DNA of 63,852 nt, the filler included, from Squatina squatina (taxonomy: Eukaryota), in assembly GCA_031763465.1 (NCBI GenBank). It is 4 parts of 4 records of this genome, joined end to end, with 100 filler letters (N's around TTAATTAATTAA, not from the genome) between each part and the next. Parts side by side here need not be neighbours in the genome. Positions count along the whole stretch, not along the records: positions 13,702 to 35,933 come from JARFOE010000100.1; 3 more parts are not named here. One strand, given 5' to 3'. The position numbers were made by a program, and so were the translations under genes. The notes beneath the pieces are model-generated. The model worked only from the letters and a program-made list of their open reading frames with translations. It ran no database searches and was not told the origin of the DNA. The number at the start of each line of letters is the position of its first letter. The first letter of the stretch is position 1. Positions 13,702 through 57,959 of this stretch are shown piece by piece.

Positions 13702-13846
13702 CAGGAAGTGGTTGATGCACAGACCACTATCATTTAAAATTCGAAAAATATTTGAAACAGAGGAAAATCCCCTCCCAAAAGAGGGGGTAATGAAACATCT
13801 AGATAGCATGCTAAGAAAGTTTTTAAACAACAATGATTTCACTTAC

Positions 13847-13944
13847 ATCTGCCCAGCTGAAATCTTCCAGGTTAAGGAAATGCCAGTCATTTAGTGCCAA
13901 CTCTCTGACTGAGCGACCACCATAGATAAACAGATAGCTCTGAC
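13847..13944 (-). CDS. LCMT2: LCMT2/TYW4 internal exon (kelch-like region)
   Basis: AG acceptor and GTAAGT donor, 98 bp. Encodes (G)QSYLFIYGGRSVRELALNDWHFLNLEDFSWAD, matching recalled human LCMT2 YLFVYGGRSVVEPVLSDWHFL. Confidence 0.88.
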
Positions 13945-14754
13945 CTTTTAAAAAAATGTAATGATCACCAATTATACAGAAAACACGGCAGTTCCAAACA
14001 GTGTTCTTACCTGGTTTTCTGTCATATTCTTTCTAAAATAATATATTAAAAATAAAAATCGAATCTAGAAGCTATTTGGTAGCACCAGTAGTAAACTACT
14101 GAGCCCGCAGTCAGACTGAATCCTAACCCCAATTGACACTAAAACTAAATGATCTCCACTGGAGGTGACCTGGTCAATTTTTGATAGGATGCTAAATAGA
14201 GGACTTTACGGTCCACGTTTTCGATGGGATAAGAGAGATTAGCATGACTTGTGGAAGAGAGCCACACCATTAACGGAATATGAAATGATACTGACAGTAA
14301 CTCTGTTGAAAGTATTTTAAAATAAATAACAGAACAAAATGGTGATGAAATACAAATAGCCATCTCAGTTCATAGTATTTTCTGAGAAAACTAAAAACAA
14401 ATCTGAGTTTTTGGTGCTGCAATGTTTCTGAGAGTTTGGTTGAGTCTACTTCTGTAGCTCTGGAACTCTCATTAAACTTACACCTCCACTATAGAATCTG
14501 GAGCAGGGAGAAAATTTACATAACGTTAAGATTTTGCCCACGCATAGATACCACATGATCAATATGAAATTGTGATTACATTTCCTCAGTCAAAGCCAGT
14601 AATTTCTTTCCATTTTTGTTTTTCCATTTGTCAGTTAGCATTTATAATGCTAGAAATTGGGGGAAAAAAGCAGAAAATGATCTGAAACTCTTTCTTACCA
14701 TTTTGTCTTGTTCTGTAATTAATGGCCACTTTTATTTAATATAATTTTTTTCAC

Positions 14755-15099: not shown

Positions 15100-16045
15100 C
15101 CAGCTGAATGAATGCACGAGCATCAAAGGCTGCTGCTGTTGCTGCTCTCCCGGTTCTCAGTTTGCACAGGCGATGCCGACGAGTCAGGGGCCGGGCTGTA
15201 ACAAGTGTCAGCTGACAGGGTCACATGCTTAAACCTTTCCGATCACTTCAGCAGTGAATATCGAAATATATCCACAAGTGAAATAAATGCATGTAATTGT
15301 AATAGGATTGGCCTTTCACCGGAGGAAGTGCTTACAACCTCCAAATGAGGGACAATGGTGAAATCTGGGATGCAGGTGTTTAACTTACACGCGGAAAGGT
15401 TTTGTTTACACTAAGCGCATTTCTCTTGTGGAAAAAAAACTAAAGTTGTTAAAATAATGCACACGCAACCCTACCCCACCCCGCACGATTTGGTTGTCGT
15501 CTTTTACCGGTGCACCTGGAGCCCAAAAACATCGATTTCCTCCGCACTTGCACCAAGGAGCAAAACCAGAATCTAGCCTTCCTAGTTTACCCTCGAAAAA
15601 ATGCCGTGGCATTAACTCGATAATTCGGTAAATACTAACGCATAGAGGAAAATCTCGGGGTGATTGTTTTCATGTCAGCCTCCCTCTTTGTTTTGGCTAT
15701 TCCTATAACGGCGCTCCACTCCCGACAACGCTCGCCCTGGCGGCCGAGTTCCGCCCTCGAACCAATGGTGAGACGGTGACTGAGGTGCCCAACCCTCCCG
15801 CTTTGGGCGGGAGTCTCCCGGACTGGGTGATTGGTCTCTCGACAGCTGCTGCTGGCAACTCGAGAGGAACGATCCGTGTGTGCGAGGTTCGTGCATGCGC
15901 AGTGCCCTGGCTCTCCGAGCTTGCAGCCAATGCGCGCCGTCTGGGCCTTGCAGGTCACCACGCTATTGGGAAACTCTGCTTCATTGCCGGATATGAGGAT
16001 GGCGGCATCGTGACCAACCAAAATCACCTGGCAAGTCCGTGTGCC
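15100..16045. promoter_or_regulatory. CpG-rich island with promoter-like motifs
   Basis: Locally high CpG density, several CCAAT/ATTGG boxes (about 15762, 15830, 15927, 15965), NRF1-like GCATGCGCA at 15893-15901 and YY1-like GATGGCGGC at about 15998. Confidence 0.5.
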
Positions 16046-16233
16046 ATCCAAACAATGAGGGACAGCTAAAAACCATCTGGTCCATCGAGCCTGTCCTACA
16101 CAATGGCGATAGCCTCTGTATCACAACATAAACAGGCCAACCCACTTGAAGAAAGATTTTAAAAAACCCAGGCCAATTCTGGAAAATTCCTCTCCGACCC
16201 ATCTAGGCAATCGAAACAAGTTCAGAAGATCAA

Positions 16234-16558
16234 CAGATGCGAAATACTGCGGAAGTTGGAATCTAGAATACAAACAAAAAATGCTGGAAAACTCAGCAGG
16301 TCAGCCTGAGAGAGAAAAACAGAGTTAACGTTTCGGGTCGATGACCCTTCCTCAGAACTAAAAAAAAGCCAGAAATACAGCAAGTTTTAAAGCACTGACA
16401 GGCAAAGGAGTGGGGGGTGGGCGAGGGAAGGACAAAGGGTAACATAATAGTGTGATTGTTTGGCAGGCAGAAGAGATTAAGAGATGATGCAAGGCAATCA
16501 GAGGTGGTAATGGCAACATAAGGAAGCACATTACATCTCGATAGGGTGTGAACAGGGG
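16234..16558 (-). mobile_element. Penelope-like element terminal-repeat fragment with 7-bp target-site duplication
   Basis: Flanked by the direct repeat AGATCAA (16227-16233 and 16559-16565). Carries a hammerhead motif. Same family at 16836-17076, about 27355-27425 and 49890-50065. Confidence 0.7.
16323..16359 (-). ncRNA. Minimal type I hammerhead ribozyme motif (Penelope-type)
   Basis: Minus strand AGTT-CTGAGGA-A-GGGTC-ATC-GACCC-GAAAC-GTT-AACT: stem I AGUU/AACU, CUGANGA box, stem II GGGUC/GACCC, GAAA box, loopless palindromic stem III (ACGU) and a GUU cleavage triplet. Confidence 0.8.
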
Positions 16559-16835
16559 AGATCAATGTTGTCCTGAATTCCCTGCAGTACCTACCTTCTA
16601 GAAGAGGTGATCTCCGCCCCAGCCAGAAACAGGTCCAGCTCCCGCTTGATGGAATTCAGTGAGTCCAGATCCACCAGACCAGACAGCAGCCTGTTCCAGA
16701 GGGCTGGGGGAAGAACAACTTCCTGACATCTAACCTAGATCTATACTTACACAACTAAATTTGTAACCCTTGGTCCTGCCTAACCTATTTAGTTTGAAAT
16801 AAACTGTCAGCTGGAAAACAACCAATTCTCTTCAA

Positions 16836-17076
16836 AAGCAAAATACTGCGGGTGCTGGAATCTAGAATGTAAACAAAAAATGCTGGAAAAGCTCAACAGG
16901 TCAAGCAGCTTCTGTGGAGAGAGAAACAGAGTGAACGTTTCAGGTCGTCTCGGTTCTGCTGAAGGGTCATCGACCCGAAACGGTAACTCTGTTTCTCTCT
17001 CCACAGATGCTGCCTGACCTGTTGAGTTTTACCAGCATTTATATCCTAGATTCCAGCATCCACAGTTTTTTGCTTT
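16836..17076. mobile_element. Inverted pair of Penelope-like terminal repeats (about 240-nt hairpin)
   Basis: Left arm 16836-16946 is the imperfect reverse complement of right arm 16971-17076. The right side carries a mutated hammerhead (CTGCTGA...GAAACGGT). Confidence 0.8.
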
Positions 17077-18202
17077 TGTACAAGAGACATCAGATTTGCC
17101 AGATTACATCGAAATGTGGAAAAATAGGCGATTATCATGCAATCGCTGGTCATTATGCTATTTGCAATGGCAGTGAATTGTCAGATATTACAGGTGACTA
17201 CAAATGTTCTATTTATGAAAAACAATTCTCAACTCAACAAGGTCTTGGTCAACACGAAAGACGTGTACATCCTGAACTACAAAAATATTAAGCTTTTATC
17301 GGCCAACTTGTTTGCTAAAAAGACCAGTAAAATATCTATTTGGTTTGACGGGGAAGCAGCTCTCCTTCCAGAACTTGAGAGCAAATATCGGAGCCAGTGG
17401 AATACTAACTTACAAAAAGTAATGAGCTGAATCAAAAACACACAGATTTCAGACAAGAGGAGGCTCTAAAAAGGAGGCTTTAAAGAAAAAAGCTCCATCA
17501 ACAGCTGGCAATACAACCAGGATAATTGCAGCCGCTGAACTTCCTCGCCAAGATCTGACTCCAAACCCATTGAAACAAAATTCATCCTAAAATGTTCCTT
17601 TATAGGAATATTTGACAACTGTGGTTAAAAAAAAATCAGCTGCTGAAGCAGGAAGAACTTTTCCATGATGCAGATAAGGCTAGACTATGGATCGGGCCAA
17701 GTTGAATCGATGACTGAATCCATGATTAATAAAAATTAAGTAATACTTCCTGTCGACACCTATAATTACACAAGGACTCAGACACTATATCATGAAGTTA
17801 GGAAATGTTTGGCGCATCAAATCATGTGTGCCCCCTGCAATATGAATTGTCCTTTCACTAAAGAGGAATTAGAGAGCAGTTTTGCTATTAAACTATCCAC
17901 TCTCAGTAATAAAGCAGACAGCAAACACTTTGCTGATTATTGTGGGTAACCAAACTGTGAAAATCTAATGAAGGTGACTAGTTAGTCTAGCTTTGTATGG
18001 AATGAAACAGGGTTGTGCAGCCAGCCCAGATGATACAAAAAGTTCCAATCTTAAAGATCTCTGTGATGAAAAAACACTAATCCCTGGAATATTCGCTCTT
18101 TGGCTTGGAACAGCCACTATTCCAGACTGTTTAAGGAGAAGCGGAACTGTTGTAATTCCAAAAATCGAATATGCTTCTCTTCTCGAGCAGGTTGACAATT
18201 AG
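17077..18202 (+). mobile_element. Degraded R2-clade non-LTR retrotransposon, N-terminal half
   Basis: Broken ORF with, in order: a CCHC-like finger (KCGKIGDYHAIAGHYAIC), a C2H2 finger (YKCSIYEKQFSTQQGLGQHERRVHP), a Myb-like start (IWFDGEAALL), a pre-RT block (YTRTQTLYHEVRKCLAHQI...CPFTKEELE) and RT regions 0-1 (MKQGCAASPDD...IFALWLGTATIPDCLRRSGTVVIPK...VDN*). Confidence 0.75.
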
Positions 18203-19473
18203 GGTATGGGACAATTCAAATGCCTTATTACTTATCGACTCTGTTCGAGTTTTCCAGCTCCAGCTTTTTGTGAATCCTATTGCTCCTTGTTCCTTTTGTC
18301 CCTATCACTCAGATAGGATCTGGGTGCTACTGAGTGAAGGCATCTGCTGTCAACGCCCCGTTTAGTAGAATCTGGGGCCCGGAGCAGCAGAAGCGATCTT
18401 CTAGGGCCCCACAAAGATCGCTTGGTCTGGTGCCACTGCCACTTTGAGACCCCTCCCCCCATCCCAACTGTGGACCCTCCTGAATTCATTACCTTAGTGT
18501 CCTCAGCTAGCGCCTGGCGCGGGCGCTAACTGGGCGCTGAGGCAGTAGCACCATGGCACGGCGTGTCCAACGACGCACACCTAATCCGCCCCACCAAAGT
18601 GCTGCCACCACGAGTTAGCACCGGGGACTTCAGCGCCGGGCAGATTGTGACGTCAGTGAGCGTGTTCACTGGGCGCCCGATCTGCAAAAACCCGAACAGC
18701 AACAGGGAGAAGAGGGGTCTAGCATGCGGAGGATGGCTCCAGAGGGTGCTACTTAAGGGGATCACGAGTAATGAGTCGCAGCTGTCAGGTCAGTGGTGTT
18801 TCACTCTTTGCTTGTCCGTTTAACATTGCGTAAAAGTTGAATTCAGTCATTTAAAGATTGTTTAGACTCTAGAGTGTTGTGGCTACTAAAAATTAGTGAC
18901 ATTTTTATTCTCACAACATTATCAAAGTGCTACAAGAGAATGAGGTTCTGCATCATCATTGAACTTCCCCGTTAAGAACTGGAAAGAGCCTGTGGCAATG
19001 ATGACTTGCGATTAGGCTGCACCTGATATTGCTTAGTGCTATGAGTGGGACACCACTGAGCTGGGTCCCTGGGCTATCATGAATTTCTCCCCCTCTGCGC
19101 AATGCATGCTGAAGAAAGCCACGATACAATAGATACAATAATGGGAAAACTGTAATCGAATCTCACTTACACAAATTTAACATGCATAAACATTCTAGTA
19201 CCATGTCCTGGAATTACCCAAATATTTTTAGTTTCCTTATGTTCCTCTTCGATATCATTATACTGACACTGTATAAGACATGGCATGATGCAATGGTTGG
19301 CAGAGATAAACTGCTCAGAGACATCAGACTGATTTATTGCATGTCTTTACAAGTTGTTAAACCTGTTCAACGCAAGGTTTTTTATTTTCCAAAAGTCCCC
19401 CACCTGATGTATAGATACCCCTTTAATAATTGATATTTTTTTATATTCATTTAGAATAGCACCGTAAACAGTT

Positions 19474-19945: not shown

Positions 19946-20388
19946 NNNNNNNNNNNNNNNNNNNNNNNNNNNNNNNNNNNNNNNNNNNNNNNNNNNNNNN
20001 NNNNNNNNNNNNNNNNNNNNNNNNNNNNNNNNNNNNNNNNNNNNNGGCGATGTTACGGAGGTGGAAGTAGGCGGCCTTAGTGATGGTGCCCATCTCGAGT
20101 AATGTGCATAAGCCCTCTGCTGGCTCCTGATCGATGGACCATACCAGGTGGTAGACTTAGACAGGTTGAGAGTGTCCCGGCCTTAGATTTCAGTTTCTCA
20201 GAAAAGCAGAGCATTCCTACTTGGACAAGATTTCTCCCATCACTGAAGTCCACATTTGAGTCCTTTCCAAACTATAATCCTGTTTAGCAAGAATGCCTGA
20301 TAGCATTTGCCCATTGTATCACTGTCAAAAGCCTCACCAAAGTCAGCAAGCATTTTCAATGAAGCATGTACTTGAAAAACAATCGTAC

Positions 20389-20578
20389 CCATTTGAGCTG
20401 GTCTCATTTCATCAATGCAGCCTATGAGCTCCACGAGTTCCTGCTTGTTTTTAATCAGAGTGGCTTTGCGCTGAACGACATCTGGAAAATCAACCTCATA
20501 CATAATCACATTTTTCAGTTCCCCACTTGCCTTTAGCCGAAAGTACAAGGAATCAAACCCAGCTCCAAGTGAGAGGAT
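20389..20578 (-). CDS. LCMT2: LCMT2/TYW4 exon (SAM-dependent methyltransferase motif I)
   Basis: CAG acceptor and GT donor, 190 bp. Encodes ILSLGAGFDSLYFRLKASGELKNVIMYEVDFPDVVQRKATLIKNKQELVELIG. GAGFDSLYFRL and EVDFPDV match LCMT2 rather than LCMT1. Confidence 0.9.
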
Positions 20579-21855
20579 CTGTAGAAATGGGAATACATAC
20601 CAAGCTCTGGTATTAAGCTTTAATGTACTGTACTCAGTGACTGTCAGAACACAAATGTTCAGATCAAGTNNNNNNNNNNNNNNNNNNNNNNNNNNNNNNN
20701 NNNNNNNNNNNNNNNNNNNNNNNNNNNNNNNNNNNNNNNNNNNNNNNNNNNNNNNNNNNNNNNNNNNNNCAGAACAACTGCCAAAATCAATGTGGCCATG
20801 GTGCCTTTAAGGAAACTGGTTGGTGACACGCCATCAAGTGATGTCATCAGGACTGCTTCCTTCAATTGGCTGGGAACCTCGCAGGGCGAGCTTAACACGC
20901 CCCATCAACGGAAGATCCTTCACACAGTGCGGGCATAAGCCAGGAGCGGGGTCACCACCCGCCACTGACCCCGGCTGCCACGGTTGGCGATATCGCAGCT
21001 ACAATGTCAGTGGCATCATCAGTGATGCTGATCAGATTGAAGTCAGCAAACATGGGAAATAGTAAAAAAATCTGGACAGAAATATCTCCATATAAATTGT
21101 ATTACGTTTACATTTGCTGCAGCAATAAATTTTCTGACTTGTGAAGCAGATTATTTCTGGCTGTTTGTGGAATATGATCTCTGTGATAGTGTTTCTTTAA
21201 TTCGAAGGAATCTCTGAACAAAGAATAACATTCTCACCTTGTAGCATGATTTACTTTGGTGAAGAAATGCCACTGCAATCTTTGAAACATTTAATTGTGT
21301 GGACACCCTGCTCGGTTCCTTGCTATAAAGGAACAATACCAGAAGTGTAATGCAGTACTGGAAATGACAAGCCCATTAATTGCTACTGTCTGTGGCATAA
21401 AAATCCTACCCTGTTAATCAGTCTTTTATACCTAATTGTAAGATGCATATGACAGTGGCTCCTGGGAAATGAGTTTCAATATAAAAGGCTGATTCACTAT
21501 GTTTGATAAATCCTAATGCACAGTTACAACAAGCCAGGCTGCTGATAGGTGAAGTATGAATTAAAAGAACAGTTGTCAAAAAATGGATCTGGAACAGGAA
21601 GTCAAACTTTCAGATGTGCTTTGTACATCAGCTTGATGTGTATTGGTGCTTACAGTGGGACTAATGTTGAGTAAAACAGTAAAAGTGCCAGGGGATGTGT
21701 TGGGGCAATGGACAGATAAAATGAATTGATTAATAAAAAAAGTCACGTGGAGCACNNNNNNNNNNNNNNNNNNNNNNNNNNNNNNNNNNNNNNNNNNNNN
21801 NNNNNNNNNNNNNNNNNNNNNNNNNNNNNNNNNNNNNNNNNNNNNNNNNNNNNNN

Positions 21856-24927: not shown

Positions 24928-26271
24928 NNNNNNNNNNNNNNNNNNNNNNNNNNNNNNNNNNNNNNNNNNNNNNNNNNNNNNNNNNNNNNNNNNNNNNNNN
25001 NNNNNNNNNNNNNNNNNNNNNNNNNNNGTGATCGTATTGAATGGCGGAGCAGGCTCGCGGGGCAGATTGGCCTACTCCTGCTCCTATTTCTTATGTTCTA
25101 CCGTGAAGACAGATACAAAATATTTGTTCAAAGTCTATTCCATTTCCTCGTTTCCCATTATTATTTCAGTTCCCACAACAGCAGGAAAATTTGCCCTGTG
25201 TAACAGTGCGTCTGAGCATCCGATATGCCTATCTGTATCCGACTCTCGCATCGTAGATCCAGAACATGGGGTTGTGAATCTGTAGTGATCCATCCGCATA
25301 AGTTTTTTGGGCATCATTGAACTGTGCTGATGTTTCTTCCTCTTCTGATAGTCAGGGAGGCCTCTTTGTCTTTTTCTGTCACCTTAGCTCCCTGAGCTGT
25401 GGAAGCTGGTTGAGTTTTGCCAGCACTCATCCAGGTCAAGCCATGGTAATCCGTCCGCATTGATTTTGACTGTTAATTTCTGCAGCCACTGATACCAGCC
25501 GATCGGGTGGTTGGCCCGATACGGTGGGTGTGTTTAGGATCCCAAAACCTGTTGTGCTGACGAGAACCGTTATATAATCAGCCTTTTAGGCCTTTTCCAT
25601 CGACTGTTTTATTAGCACTTTGTTTAATTCACCTTGGAATATTCAAGTTTGTGGTAAGTACAATAAAGATAGCATTATTGTCAAAAACATGACAAGCATC
25701 AAAATAACCTTCTGTCAATGGTGTCTGAGCAGTAATGTTAAAAGGGATAGAACGATTCACATTTGGGTGTTAATCCTGCATGTCTCCAGCTGAATTCTAG
25801 GATGTAATCTGATAACAACAAAGCTGGTTTGTGATCATCTAAGTAGCGTTGTTGTTATTGATTGCAGCTGTGGTTTGTTATGATGGGCTTTAATTGTGAT
25901 GTAATCAATACTAATTTAGTTTTAAAAAGCCACATCCATCTGGGGCACTTAGGAAAAAATGTAATGGTTCAAATTACATGCATCATGGATACAGTGTGTG
26001 CATGTAATAATGCCTTGCTGCCAAAAGTCAATCATTAATGAAGATTTTTGATGCACAAAATGAAACCCGATGAGACCATTANNNNNNNNNNNNNNNNNNN
26101 NNNNNNNNNNNNNNNNNNNNNNNNNNNNNNNNNNNNNNNNNNNNNNNNNNNNNNNNNNNNNNNNNNNNNNNNNNNNNNNNNACAACTCCATTTCTACCCA
26201 TTACAAAAGGTCTATCAAGATGTAAATGTTCTCCACTGGTAAAATAAATCAAAGTTTTTAATCTTGCACAG

Positions 26272-26510
26272 GAAATCAAGGTGGATCAGTAGCGATGGCC
26301 CTATTAAAGGATGGCACATTCAAGGTGAGAGCTATTACAAGGAATCCAAGAAAAAAAGAAGTTAAAGAACTGAAATATCTTGGAGCTGAGATAGTGAAAG
26401 CTGATCTGGACAATGAGAAGAGCCTGTTTGATGCATTGAAAGAAGTGTATGGAGTCTTCTTAGTCACAGACTACTGGGAGTATATGGACAAAGATAGAGA
26501 AATACAGCAG
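26272..26510 (+). CDS. NmrA-like family (NMRAL1/NMRAL2-type) exon with Rossmann-fold start
   Basis: CAG acceptor and GTATGA donor, 239 bp, open frame: (G)NQGGSVAMALLKDGTFKVRAITRNPRKK...GVFLVTDYWEYMDKDREIQQ. Collinear with recalled NMRAL1 [29 protein letters not shown]. Paralogue identity unresolved. Confidence 0.9.
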
Positions 26511-29500
26511 GTATGAAGGAAATGATGTACAGAACAGTTTTCCTAAGCACCAGTCTGGTTTAGAACTGTGCCCTCACAGCATGTTGTATATATGTTTTGC
26601 CCACAGTCAATAATAGAGACAGCTGTAAAACATAAAAACCTGTTGCAATTAAGGGACTGAAATCCTGCTCCTGTTTGCTGATGACACAGAGGGAGCAAAA
26701 CAAACAGGATCAGTCCCAGTGCGCCCCATTTGTGCTTGTCCTCGGTTTTCCGTTGGGACTGTGTCGGAGGCATCGGGTGTTTGTGCTGCTCCATGGCACA
26801 AGTCTCATTGCAACATTCACTGGGGTTGGTGAGAATTGTGATGCGTTGTGCCCTTGGAGCCAGGCCAGTGCATTTCACCCTTAGAAGATGGAGCAAAGGA
26901 CTCTCCTGCAGGCAACCTGAAGTGCCTTTAAGACTGACCTTTTCATGAGATTCGTCTTTTTTTTCTGTTTTTGTTTTCTTGGCATCGCACCACTACTTGC
27001 CTCTTTGGATTAGGTGTTAATTGGTTCCCTTTTATTTGATTTTACCTTTACTGTTGCATCCTACCATTCAAAATAGTCGGCTTGACATAGGTTACCCTGC
27101 CTGCCCTCTAGACATCTGAGCACTAAACAGGAAATGCCCAATTTCAAACTTTGCCGTGAGCGGGGCTTGCAGGTGCTATTTTATGAAGCTGCACCATATT
27201 TTTGTGCTCCTGCCCAGGAAATCCAGACCTTTGTGTTCCCACTGCATGATGCAGATTTCACTGGGAGCATGTCATCTGCACTTATATTAGGGGACAGACT
27301 AGCTCTGAAGAAGAGTCCATACCCGAATTGGCTGTTCTCGCCTCGGGGCTTCTCTGGCCTGCTGAGTGTTTCCAGAATCTTCTGTTTTTGTTTCAGATTT
27401 CCAGCATCCACAGTATCTTGCTTCTTGTTCAGGAAATTTGGGGAATTGCCCTCAGTACACATTAGTGCAAAATGTGCCAATGCACCTGGGGTGGAATTTC
27501 AGCCCCTGAATCATCACATTATGCTCTACACACGCAAGACTTGCAACACTTCTGGTGACTTCAGAAAGACATGCTTCCACCTAAAGTGGGATAGGAGGAT
27601 GTGACAGTTCATGACAAGATGCTATTTTCCCCTCCCCCAAATTTTTTTGTCTTATTTGCTCCCCTAATTTATACTCACTGGCCCACGTACAGATGTCTGG
27701 CCGTGAGGTAAATGATCTGCTCCCAGGACTCTGCAATGCACCTTCTGAGATGAACGTGTGTGAAAGGAACCAGGAGAGACTCTCCCATTTATCATTCCAA
27801 CCTAGAGTTACAAAATGTTACAGCTCAGAAGCAGAGCCTTTGGCCCATCATGTCTGTGCTGGTCTTTTTCTCTACATGAGCCACCTAGTCCATTCTTACT
27901 CTCCTTGCTCCCAAAACCCTTTCAATATTCCTCTTTTATAAACAACTACCTAATTTCCATCTAAAAGAATTTATGAACTCAACAACGATTTGTGGCAGAG
28001 AATTCCACATTTCAGCTACCTTCTGTGTAAAGAAATGTGCAGAAATGCCTATCTTCCCCCACTGACATGGCTGAAATCAGGAAATTAGAGTGTGCGGCTA
28101 CCATTTGGTGGCACAGTGTTTTATAACCAGCATTGTGCCACCATGTCACCTTCATAATGCGTTTTTAAGTTAAAGGTGACGTGGACTTGGTGGTCAAAGA
28201 TTCTACCAGCTTGTGTTTTTGTAGTTTTCTGCCTAGTACTTGGGATTTGCAGAAATCTAAACCAAGTTTTGTCAGTTGTATTGGGTTGGGGTCTGTTATC
28301 CTATAAAACACAANNNNNNNNNNNNNNNNNNNNNNNNNNNNNNNNNNNNNNNNNNNNNNNNNNNNNNNNNNNNNNNNNNNNNNNNNNNNNNNNNNNNNNN
28401 NNNNNNNNNNNNNTGAGGTAGAAGATCAGCCGTGGTCTTGTAGAATGGCAGAGCAGGCTCAAGGGGCCGAATGGCCGACTCCTACTCCTATTTCTTATGT
28501 TCTTATTTGTTCACGCTAATCATCCCCTCTACACCCACTCATTCCAGTCTCTGGCTGGTGACTATAAACAAACTGTAGTTTGGTTAGATTGCTGCCGCTG
28601 ATAAAGGATAAATCAAACGTAGTGCTGTGAGAGGCACGTTTAATAATGCACAGATTACATTCTCTGTATCCACAAACTCTGAACAGTTGCTGCTGCTGAC
28701 TGACTTCTCTTTTCATTTTATCTGTAATTATCTGGGTTCTCATGACCAGGGATTCACTGAGTTACAGTATTTCCAATCTGTAATCTCAGGGTGAGAGGAA
28801 GAATTTGAGAATTTTTTTTTTCCTTCCCAAAAAAAACCATAAAACAAAATGACTACCAAGTGAAGGTTACAACTACAAAGGTCTTTGAAATAGTACATGA
28901 TCCTGATTATCGTGAGAAAGATGGCACACTCTGAGCACACTAATTCTTCAACATCTGCTTTTGTTAGATCTATGCATTCCNNNNNNNNNNGTGAGAACAA
29001 TTCCCAGATCTTTCATCAGCGAGGGCAGCAGTGCGTGTAGGACAATCAGTTTCAGGACCCTTGGGCTAAGGAGGAAAAAATCAGTCGAGTTTGGGTTCCT
29101 GATTGCTATCCATGACCTCGATGGTAGAAGTGCATGTGTGTGGACATCCATTGGGGACATGACTGGTTTTGGCTGTGATGGTCTCCGTGGATGGATAACC
29201 TGCTGACTCTCGCTCTCTAGGCTCACACATGAACAAACAATCATTTAAGTGAGGTAGCAGAGGGTAGCCAGCACCCATGGAACTATCCTAGCAAGAGGTT
29301 ACCCCCACCAGGAGCAGGGAGAATCNNNNNNNNNNCTTTGAGGGGAAAAGTAAGTTCCCAGGTCTGAGTATGTTGTTTCTTTATTCAGTATGAAAGTTCC
29401 TGAGGATAGCTAGTCAGGTTCAAATAATTCAAGCTGCAGTGCAGCAAATACAAAACACAATTAAACTATCAACACATTTCACTGATCTGTCTAACAGTTA

Positions 29501-32502: not shown

Positions 32503-33083
32503 CTAAAGTGCAAAAAAAAAATTAGGGTTATGCCTGTTAATCAACTATAATATTTCAGACTAGAGAATTGATTTTAAAAGTTATTACATGTTAAAATAAA
32601 ATGCTCAAGGGTTAAACCTCAATGAAAGTTTTAAACCAATTAACCAAAAGACATGACACAGTAATAGGGTATGCGATGGGCACAATTTACATAAACGTGA
32701 CTGTAAATCAGTGTTTGAACGCATGTCATTTTGAAAGACTGACTACAACTCAACATTCATACTTAAAACAAAAACAGAATTCCATTTTAACATAGTAAAN
32801 NNNNNNNNNGGATATTTAGGGCTGCGCTGATAGTAAGTGAGCAGACTTCACACACAAGCTGCCACTTTAAGTGAGGCTGTCACAGGGCGATAGGCGCCAA
32901 TGCTACAGAGGCCACTATCAATGAGCCCTTTAATTTTTTTGGGGGTGTGCCACCCCTTTAAACGGGCTTCAAATTCCCATGCATGTGCGTTTTTCCCCCC
33001 ATATAACAGTGTGTGCAGCCTGCGTGGGAGCTCCAGATGCAGCTTAATGGGAGCATTGGCCACTTTTTAAAAAAATCTTCCAC

Positions 33084-33185
33084 CTTTTGCATGATCCCCT
33101 TTTCATAGTAATAGCGAAGCGAGCGGCTCAATTTGTCGTAGTTCATCGCGGGGCGGTTCTTCTGGATGCCCCAGCGCCGAGCAAC
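33084..33185 (-). CDS. ETV5: ETV5 ETS-domain exon
   Basis: 102 bp, AG/GT, phase 0-0: [34 protein letters not shown]. Confidence 0.93.
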
Positions 33186-35167
33186 CTGCAGCAAAAACAG
33201 GAGAGAAGGGGAAAAAAAAAATTATATTTGTAGATATGGACACAGCATAAATGAACTCTCAAATGGATGCAAAGATAAAATGACCATAGACTGTGTTTGT
33301 GCGCTATTGATCTATATCCCATTAGTGTGCATTTCAGTAAATGCAAGAGTCTGAATATAGAAATCAATAGAAGGTAATAGCAAGGCCCATAGGTCATCAC
33401 TGTAACCGTAGCAGTGCAACAGCCGCTTGCTAATGGGACTGTTGATGTGGCAAGCATGATTTTAATGAGATTTTGGAAAGTGCTTAGTCTTTATTGGCTA
33501 TTTTGTGTTTTAAAAAAAGGGTGAAAATGACAGTACTTCTGCTCCCAAGGACACCCACTCCAGTACTTTAACACAAATACTGGAAACTGCAATATGAATT
33601 GTAGAACATGATTGAACAAAGACAAAAGAACATAATGTTCGTTCAAAAAAAAAAATCAGAATAATAAATGTTCTCTAAATCCAAGCAGGCTCATGTGTCT
33701 TGTGGTCTTCCTAAAATTAGCTCACTGGCCATCAAGTGTTGCAACTTAATGTGCCCTTCAAATCCCTTGGAGGTCTCCAAGCAATCAGATGAATAAGGTG
33801 CATGTACCAAGCATTCGTCATAAATGGATGCAACCACCAAGTCTAGTTCCAATACGGCATGCTTCACGTCTAGCTCATGGTTCTTATAATTAGGGCTAAA
33901 GATTAGCTTGCGCTTGGCAAATAATGAGTTGTATTATCACCTTGACCACTGACACACAAATCAGAGAAGGAAGCTTTCGATTCAAATCTAATTTGATTCG
34001 GTTGGCCAGTAATTAAAGATTTTCTATTTCATGCATTTTCAAAGCCACAAGCAGACGTCTTAGGTCTGTAAAGTTGCTGTGATTTCAGTCATGATCTGTT
34101 GAAACATGCATCACTCAGACATGCATAAAGCTCATTTCAAGAGCACGACACATTCATTTAATNNNNNNNNNNNNNNNNNNNNNNNNNNNNNNNNNNNNNN
34201 NNNNNNNNNNNNNNNNNNNNNNNNNNNNNNNNNNNNNNNNNNNNNNNNNNNNNNNNNNNNNNAAATATTGGCCCTGACACTGTGATCTCCCCAGGTGGGA
34301 ACAATGTTCCTACGCACCCGGGGAGACATCGCAAAAGCCGGTTACGGGGCTGTACATTATAAGCCCGCATAACCGGCATTTGTGATCTGTCCAGAAACTT
34401 CTGGACAGATCCAACACGGAGGCTGCGAGGCCCATCCCCAGCACAGAGCTTTGCGATATTTTTGCATAGCTTTCTGCTGGGGATCTCTTCAAATTTTTTT
34501 ATGCATGATAAAACCGAGCGAATGTTTTACCATCTGCTTGGTTTTACTGCAGATCGCCATTCACTGCTTCCTATAGGTGATGGTATTTTTAGGCCTAAGC
34601 CGATTAGAAGATTTCAGTTACATCATAGAGCATCAAATTAGTAACATCCTTGAAGTAGCAGTAGTGCAAACTACATAAAACAGTGTGATCCATTAAATAT
34701 CAAAGTCTCGGTATAGGCTCTTGTTATTGTTTAAATAAATATAAAAAAGGATCTGCCACCTAACACAAGCAGGAACATTTCCATTTAAAATTAATACCAG
34801 AAAGGAATTATTCCAAAAGCTGGGTTTTGAGAGTTTCCCCTTCCCCTACGAGGCAAGATTGAGCAAAATGAAAAGGTCACTTTATAGAATGTGCTCAGCT
34901 ACATCTGTCAAGCAACCTCCATAAATTAAGTGTGAAATGCCAACCAAGGCCTATCGCTGCAGTAACAAATCTCTCAGCTTCCTGATGTCAAAAGATAATA
35001 AAAGTGATGCAGAATACTCATGGGCAGGAAGAGGGCCCAGGTTCATTCCTGCAAACCATCAACAACCCATCATTTGACAGTTAGGAGAGACTGCATTTTA
35101 CACCTACTAAAATAATGGATCAATGCGATCTGTGGACCTCAGCAGCAGTCCCGAGTAGAGAACCAAC

Positions 35168-35415
35168 CTGAGTCATAACAGTAGTCTCTTGGCTCCTGCT
35201 TAATCCCAAGGGGGGGCTGGAAATTTTGTCTGCTGGGACCGACGCCTGTAGCGACGTGATCATAACGAGAGTCGTGGTACTCCTGCTTGTAGCCCTGAGG
35301 AGACGGCGAAGGCATCGGTTCTGACATCTGCCTCTGGTAAACTTGCCGACTGTCGCTGGGGACTCCTGACTGGGGTGGGTACGGGTGGCATGGTTCAGAC
35401 ATCTGCCTCTGAAAC
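35168..35415 (-). CDS. ETV5: ETV5 central exon
   Basis: 248 bp, AG/GT: [15 protein letters not shown]...YQRQMSEP...GYKQEYHD...[13 protein letters not shown], with the PEA3-family KQE motifs. Exons between this and the 33084-33185 exon are not visible and are probably lost in the gap. Confidence 0.9.
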
Positions 35416-35933
35416 CTTAATGATAAAACAAGAAGTCAAATATTTATTTTGGGTCTTGGTAATACTGAGGCACTTAACTAAGTAACTGCAGTGGCATTTG
35501 CGAACAGTGGGGAAATGTCACATGATCAAATGTCATGTGATTAACCTTCATGAGCGGTGTCACACGATCAAATCTCCAGGTCAAACCAGAGTTGGAAAAC
35601 CTACCTCAGAGTAAAAGTTGCTCCCCTACCTTCTGTATTTTGAGACATCAGGGAGCAGCATTTTTGCACAAGCGATTGAATGGTGAAACATAGGTACTTT
35701 TGAAGCTGAAGATGAGGCAATGAAGGGTGGGGCTTGTAGTTTGTTTCTGTGGGAGGCATAGGGCAAAGAGAGACAGAGTAAGATGGGGAAAGCGGCAAAA
35801 AGAAAAAAAATATATAAATCCTGCTGTATAACCTATGAATCTGTTAGCTAGCAAAAAAAGCGACTGGACTGTGTGTGTTTAAGTAAAGAGAAAGCTGGGT
35901 GGCAAATCCCCATGTAAGATGGGGCGACTGGAG

Positions 35934-53797: not shown

Positions 53798-53871
53798 GGC
53801 ACCGTGGCTTAGTTGGTTAAAGTGCTTGTCTGGTAAACTGGAGATCCTGGGTCTAATTCCTAGCCGGGCCT
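53798..53871 (+). pseudogene. tRNA-Thr-derived pseudogene (anticodon reads GGT)
   Basis: GGCACCGTGGCTTAGTTGGTTAAAGTGCTTGTCTGGTAAACTGGAGATCCTGGGTCTAATTCCTAGCCGGGCCT versus tRNA-Thr(AGT). T-loop/B box mutated. Confidence 0.8.
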
Positions 53872-56666: not shown

Positions 56667-56739
56667 GTCTCTGTGGAGTAATTGTTTAGTGCGTGTGGCT
56701 GTTCACAAAAGGTTGGTGGTTCAAGCCCACCCAGGGACG
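56667..56739 (+). pseudogene. tRNA-Asn(GTT) pseudogene
   Basis: GTCTCTGTGGAGTAATTGTTTAGTGCG...CTGTTCAC...GGTGGTTCAAGCCCACCCAGGGACG. Acceptor and T arms intact, D and anticodon arms damaged. Confidence 0.82.
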
Positions 56740-57888: not shown

Positions 57889-57959
57889 TGACCCGATGTG
57901 ATTTGAACATAAAGCCTTCAAATTTTCAGTCAGACACGCTACTGTTGCGCCACAAGGTC
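57889..57959 (-). pseudogene. tRNA-Trp-derived pseudogene
   Basis: GACCTTGTGGCGCAACAGTAGCGTGTCTGACTGAAAATTTGAAGGC...GTTCAAATCACATCGGGTCA. CCA anticodon lost. Confidence 0.78.

Follow-up and report, generated by a model that had tools for sequence, protein, structure and literature searches.

The window analysed here is a stretch of 63,852 nucleotides, filler included, from the shark Squatina squatina (assembly GCA_031763465.1), joined from four parts of four records. Its plus strand holds, at positions 17080..18200, a broken internal fragment of a lineage-A R2 retrotransposon, identified by tblastn blocks, nhmmer and a protein tree. This fossil lies on a 15-Mb scaffold (G000:C100:12230127-12231267, equivalent to 17070-18210 of the window). 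Its R2 homology is distributed over four collinear blocks (17076-17282, 17281-17490, 17761-17970 and 17981-18199, in frames 3, 1, 1 and 2), which display 36-53% identity by tblastn with R2 proteins of the same genome and contain three stops; nhmmer recovers 17072-17459 (E 4e-19) and 17765-18200 (E 2e-27). From the proximal to the distal end, the fossil starts with the residues KRH (17080..17090), which align with LNKRH of a family copy (L026) and are assigned to the end of zinc finger 3, a short match that is supporting only. Zinc finger 2, of CCHC type, follows at 17106..17165 and zinc finger 1, of C2H2 type, at 17205..17270, both recognised from matches to R2 proteins. The former has lost its first cysteine (TSKC where CxKC is expected) and the latter has a tyrosine in place of the second (CSIY where CxxC is expected), its Pfam match to zf-C2H2_6 (E 3e-4) falling under the cut-off. 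A Myb domain remnant (IWFDGEAALL...QISDKRR, 17338..17466) lies past a frame change, contains a stop and is 36% identical to copies L022 and L026. It is followed by the N-terminal extension (-1) block, with one stop (17761..17970, 47% identity with L022 over 70 residues), and by RT motifs 0 and 1 (17981..18199, 43% identity with L022), which terminate at a stop where the relatives have NW. A degraded continuation into RT motif 2 (18200..18270) is possible, the evidence being a gappy, weak pairwise alignment. The 5' UTR, the RT core, the endonuclease and the 3' UTR are absent, and both ends are missing.

Comparison with the PDB leaves little doubt on the identity of the finger block: it matches the R2Tg chains 9nl3 and 9dou (E 7e-9 and 8e-9), with ordinary zinc fingers ranking well below, as well as another vertebrate R2 chain, 9nl2 (E 1e-7), and 8gh6, which we take to be the silkmoth R2 (E 0.02). 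The RT0-1 block also finds R2Tg chains (E 0.0015). The Myb remnant alone was not detected against the PDB, nor did the middle of the fossil read in a single frame (P0001) give an R2 match there; the 72-residue RT0-1 block used as a homolog query found nothing, a weak test for such a short query. The fossil thus exhibits zinc fingers and a Myb domain ahead of an R2-type RT, and of the lineage-A finger set CCHH-CCHC-CCHH it retains fingers 2 and 1 and the tail of finger 3, finger number by itself not being decisive for R2 lineage according to the available part of PMC13188248. A previous reading of the sequence alone had listed the fingers, a Myb-like motif and RT regions 0-1, all of which are present in a six-frame read; both of its fingers are there, each short of one cysteine, and it had overlooked the tail of the third. 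Taken alone, the fossil is ordinary.

The surroundings of the fossil are devoid of rDNA, as that reading had noted for 28S: Rfam finds no rRNA in the window, and a blastn query with 28S from this genome is equally without a match there and across 50 kb of flanking DNA (30 kb to one side and 20 kb to the other). The fossil copy is therefore not an insertion at the 28S site. With profiles built from family copies, neither another R2 piece nor a 3' UTR or a ribozyme is detected over the window and this flank. The 5' end is bounded by a palindromic MITE-like repeat (16827..17087, on neither strand in particular, inverted self-match 79%), with partial copies at 16233-16358 and 49898-50064. On the minus strand, an open frame with a leucine carboxyl methyltransferase exon (20243..20668, Pfam LCM E 4e-9, LCMT1 match) and a Kelch-repeat exon (13826..14032, Pfam Kelch E 6e-5) probably derive from one gene, which by its domains would be LCMT2/TYW4-like; the list of its LCM/Kelch exons also includes L005:4644-4856(-). 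The fossil would then probably lie antisense in an intron of this gene, the exon link being interrupted by a scaffold gap at 19946-20045. The apparent intron also contains a CpG-rich, promoter-like stretch with CCAAT boxes (15300-16100, CpG o/e 0.83-0.86), which might represent a nested promoter or else result from mis-ordering of the scaffold. Further away are an NmrA-like exon (26262-26513, plus strand) and two PEA3-type ETS exons (32961-33221 and 35142-35435, minus strand). Three weak tRNA-family matches (53798-53871, 56667-56739 and 57889-57959), in another part of the stretch, are probably SINE heads.

In an R2 protein tree of 37 rows and 276 columns (those filled by the fossil), rooted at midpoint and built without L002 and P0003 (gaps), P0012, P0028 and P0030 and with no R4, NeSL, Hero or CRE row knowingly included, the fossil falls inside a shark clade (support 99.4/100), as sister to a family of its own genome (78.5/96). 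PDB matches, tree and blastn together bear out the proposal of a chondrichthyan R2-A-like lineage outside rDNA. The fossil is only 30-46% identical to the family copies; a closer sister is L002, 69% identical in nucleotides over 354 query bases and likewise without ends. The younger R2 family accounts for eight more RT0-1 matches and five more finger matches in the genome, and all three fingers are seen in L026, L028, L029 and the protein P0005. An intact relative had been surmised to exist elsewhere, and a long-frame copy is indeed present: L022 (G000:C858332) has a stop-free frame of 957 codons. It scores 554-563 bits with 9nl2, 9nl3 and 9dou, 253 with 8gh6 and 94 with LINE-1, and is thus closer to the A-lineage than to the D-lineage reference proteins. 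The C-terminal CCHC knuckle and restriction-like endonuclease (PDL...VDV), missing from the fossil, are seen in it by eye. The L022 contig folds back in the R2 endonuclease region, the other strand having 124 stop-free codons; this likely results from misassembly of a young element present in many copies, and because the contig folds back on itself its 3' junction is unusable.

Relatives in other sharks extend this picture. The best database matches of L022 include catshark and bamboo-shark proteins. P0005 belongs to the shark clade of the fossil, and its first 400 residues correspond by eye to R2-1_CPu in the available part of PMC13188248 (Table S2), where this element has 28S on both sides. 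Shark R2s are therefore already published, in PMC13188248 and, as R2Sqj, in PMC5035012, as far as the accessible portions of these papers go. Shark homologs on contigs of 0.26-4.4 Mb may hint at the same spread elsewhere. In one bamboo-shark gene model, P0028, an R2 RT piece is joined to receptor domains (PF01094, PF07562); this model is probably a mis-annotated dispersed copy.

A first question is whether the fossil arrived as DNA, through an rDNA orphon, a duplication or capture at a break, and not by its own reverse transcription. TPRT always copies the 3' end first, and the fossil is an internal piece without a 3' end. A second internal piece is known on a 24-Mb scaffold (L081/L082, G000:C1:20321324-20322046): it comprises 723 nt of RT, 86% identical to L022, and stops abruptly at non-R2 DNA. 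Two loci associate R2-type ends with 28S outside arrays: L133 (412-498), with 87 nt of decayed upstream 28S, and L074 (734-906), with 173 nt of inverted 28S (96%). Against such an arrival, the window and its flank hold no 28S or second R2 piece, end loss is common in old copies, and the many precise junctions of the family are a simpler source. Arrival as DNA is hence unlikely, if worth keeping in view.

The 5' ends of the relatives are informative. Six copies (L023, L026, L027, L029, L051 and L078), found without the leader pattern, carry a 28S-like leader directly after non-rDNA; the search with the leader pattern gave 14 exact matches, two of them uninserted 28S. Among 13 5' junctions not at CR1, the 28S match ends exactly at -28 in seven and between -24 and -28 in 11, the other two having longer 28S pieces. 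In the part of Eickbush 2013 (PMC3774820) available, -28 is the common ribozyme cut and the leader forms P1. An HDV-like fold over 12 aligned 5' ends is 83.5% paired, against 26-57% when slid, with P3 at 100%, P1.1 at 91%, P1 at 72% and five to six of the six P2 pairs in 10 of the 12 ends; covariation is not beyond shuffles. The MFE fold has a z of -2.5, by a method that cannot show a pseudoknot, and Rfam gave no ribozyme match in nine loci. These data are compatible with a putative HDV-like double-pseudoknot ribozyme at the relatives' 5' ends, whose P1 would be provided by the 28S leader. None of the 14 exact leader matches is a 5' junction in long, clean 28S, and an rDNA-resident master copy is not demonstrated in this assembly.

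Many relatives are non-coding, with a length of about 1 kb. Seven elements (L071, L072, L078, L074, L011, L090 and L075) have no tblastn match to R2 protein, and the four measured are 958-1425 nt long with longest stop-free frames of 77-122 codons; a 5' probe yields 41 matches. They share with the coding copies a ribozyme-like beginning and the terminal 50-150 nt, while their middle does not match the coding family, and they occupy the same sites as coding copies, 28S included (L011). A ribozyme-like 5' end, an R2 3' end, the lack of an ORF and the use of R2 sites are the hallmarks of SIDEs, and all are found here. This points to R2-derived non-coding elements spreading in a vertebrate, which would have arisen by internal deletion. 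Tandem ribozyme-like modules occur in L071, L142 and L151, as would be expected from the leader-duplication model of PMC3774820, as far as its available text describes it.

The 3' junctions describe where the family lands. The 3'-end searches returned at least 44 and at least 18 matches, and 43 loci were examined (39 plus four added), of which 34 were kept; L050 and L044 (no end), L022 (fold-back) and L033, L084, L085, L046, L074 and L086 (end broken or interrupted) were dropped. The end was placed by eye in seven of these 34 (L079, L075, L010, L094, L093, L132 and L151). Three intact junctions are at 28S, 13 at one CR1 site and 18 elsewhere, so that a genome-wide search of the kind advised in the sequence-only reading finds both 28S and varied sites (3/34 and 31/34). 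The three 28S junctions have merely 32-77 nt of 28S up to the contig ends, flanks that Rfam misses at its gathering score and for which blastn was used instead. As short-read contigs collapse rDNA copies, 3/34 is not a rate, and the accessible part of PMC13580325 gives the same caution on contig-based location counts. The sequence after the scattered junctions starts with TAG in 15 of 18 and with TAGC in 11 of 18, for backgrounds of 1.1% and 0.24%; leaving out four hand-set ends, the counts are 11/14 and 7/14. An empty paralog was found for only one of the 18 scattered sites (L072), and the TAG at the scattered sites may have been brought by the RNA and not by the target. The downstream flanks of L042 and L090 look alike by eye, which may indicate that these two also have a site in common, a third one, within another repeat. 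L010, at the 28S site, is a divergent element of 978 nt on a long branch, family-like only in its last 74 nt. The 28S sequences of L008 and L024 are just 80% alike over 1.2 kb, and one of them may be foreign DNA or a pseudogene.

These counts could also be read as those of a lineage that has turned generalist after losing its target specificity, comparable to the R2NS families known from planaria and liver fluke. The excess of junctions outside 28S, the lack of a clean rDNA 5' junction among the exact leader matches and the ribozyme leader that dispersed copies carry themselves would fit such a lineage. However, the junctions are far from random, and by their 3' counts the family does have a target preference, with its TAG starts and 13 copies at one site. 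Moreover, one short-branch group of the junction tree (97/93) mixes a 28S copy with CR1-site copies and others, and close shark relatives are published in 28S (PMC13188248, in the part available). Finally, present-day locations overstate off-target use, rDNA copies being lost faster, as stated in the accessible text of PMC13580325. A generalist lineage is thus quite improbable. Of the two options left by the sequence-only reading, off-target insertion and lost specificity, the first is supported for the family: as 28S is still used and scattered sites have TAG, the data favor leaky targeting and give no support to a loss of specificity.

The main CR1 site deserves closer description. The repeat is presumably of the CR1 family, on the basis of CR1 motifs, and the site is near the end of CR1 ORF2, as placed from the reading frame. 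Empty copies read ATAAGA|TAGTCA in 30 copies, to be compared with TTAAGG|TAGCCA in 28S. A second CR1 site, TGAAGG|TAGCAG, has a single insertion, L072. Position -20 is a T in 27 of 30 and 14 of 20 copies of the two sites, respectively. With exact 22-mer counts, a mere proxy for site abundance, the two are equally common (576 and 567), and yet insertions are 13:1 (p 0.002). In the 3'-end junction tree, built without L075 and L095, CR1-site copies are scattered; a single clade is rejected (AU p 1e-46), with at least five changes forced. In L136, both CR1 halves flank an insert of 1011 nt and the site is split cleanly. Because the copies do not form one clade and L136 splits its site cleanly, the site was entered by repeated insertions. 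The downstream CR1 sequence common to the 13 copies, and the R2/R1 hybrids of Drosophila described in the available part of PMC3414825, would fit a single R2-CR1 chimera amplified by CR1 enzymes. The rejection of one clade largely refutes this; in addition, coding-family and non-coding copies alike use the site, and nine 5' junctions (eight of the 21 listed, plus L140) still have the CR1 half that lies upstream, a part expected to be missing from any template cut by the ribozyme, so that such a chimera is very improbable. That the fossil is a domesticated DNA-binding module is scarcely credible: its DNA-binding region is retained about 1.1 kb from the CpG-rich, promoter-like stretch, but frame changes, stops and lost zinc ligands argue against it.

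The reading we favor, and consider rather likely, is that the fossil is an inactive remnant from the interior of a shark lineage-A R2, lying outside rDNA and likely left by an old off-target insertion, and that its family still uses 28S and repeatedly lands at 28S-like sites. The R2 or SIDE RNA would be cut from a longer transcript by the HDV-like ribozyme at -28; the R2 protein would nick and prime where the target resembles 28S around the nick (TAAG.|TAG) and at T-20; and the 28S leader would be copied into the new site. Off-target copies would last, rDNA turnover not removing them, and the fossil's two ends would have been lost through later deletion or insertion. Because both ends are gone, we infer the fossil's own insertion route from the family alone. 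More tentatively, and with considerable doubt, dispersed shark R2-A and SIDEs, whose own 28S leader would complete the ribozyme outside rDNA, might themselves be source elements; the CR1 site, with 13 insertions against one at a site that is just as common and more similar to 28S, could then be a natural retargeting under way, a second home.

Several known systems allow this family to be placed. Best structural-database matches are to R2Tg and the vertebrate A-clade (9nl3, 9dou and 9nl2). The shark lineage-A elements R2-1_CPu, R2-1_STig and R2-1_CCar, as given in the available part of PMC13188248, are of the same clade, with three fingers and Myb and 28S at -1/+1. That survey annotates copies by their 28S flanks, and its available rows and sections describe neither dispersed copies nor a CR1 site, nor any non-coding derivatives. 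In cells, R2Tg off-targets have the same match of 4-5 nt downstream of the nick and T-20 (PMC12222951), and avian R2 off-targets share bases just past the nick, at about 1% and 0.1% (PMC11371274), according to the accessible parts of both papers. The natural site pattern thus matches the laboratory off-targets of engineered avian R2. The latter are engineered, in human cells and at about 1% or less, whereas the shark insertions arose naturally, are inherited and concentrate at one CR1 site. Finger 2 reads bases near the nick in the available text of PMC12180492, and this reading is a candidate basis for the 13:1 site bias.

The R2 SIDEs and R2/R1 SIDEs of Drosophila (PMC3414825, as available) are likewise non-coding elements of about 1 kb, ribozyme-like at the 5' end and R2-like at the 3' end. 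In contrast, the shark ones are in a vertebrate, mostly outside rDNA and in some cases with tandem ribozyme-like modules; the word "vertebrate" is absent from the main text of that paper in the form available. R2NS-1_SMed and R2NS-1_CSi (PMC5035012) and the cockroach BLAG (PMC7650587) are also R2-related copies outside rDNA, but these are of the C/D-clade or a sister clade and described as non-specific in the accessible portions, while the shark family is of lineage A, keeps a site motif and has 28S copies. The literature, in the parts available, contains non-specific flatworm R2 families, elements related to R2 in cockroach and in sponges, and R2s of sharks inserted in 28S. In the openly accessible papers covered, no report was found of such off-target insertions in a shark, of the CR1 site or of R2 SIDEs in a vertebrate.

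The finding is therefore the site behaviour of the family and not the fossil, which by itself is of little importance. A-lineage R2 proteins are the basis of gene-insertion tools under construction, and their off-target rules come so far from short cell assays. At least 31 inherited off-target junctions, together with one strong and one weak hot spot, are natural substrates for testing which bases matter. The dispersed copies of this family likely record how R2 misses its target in nature.
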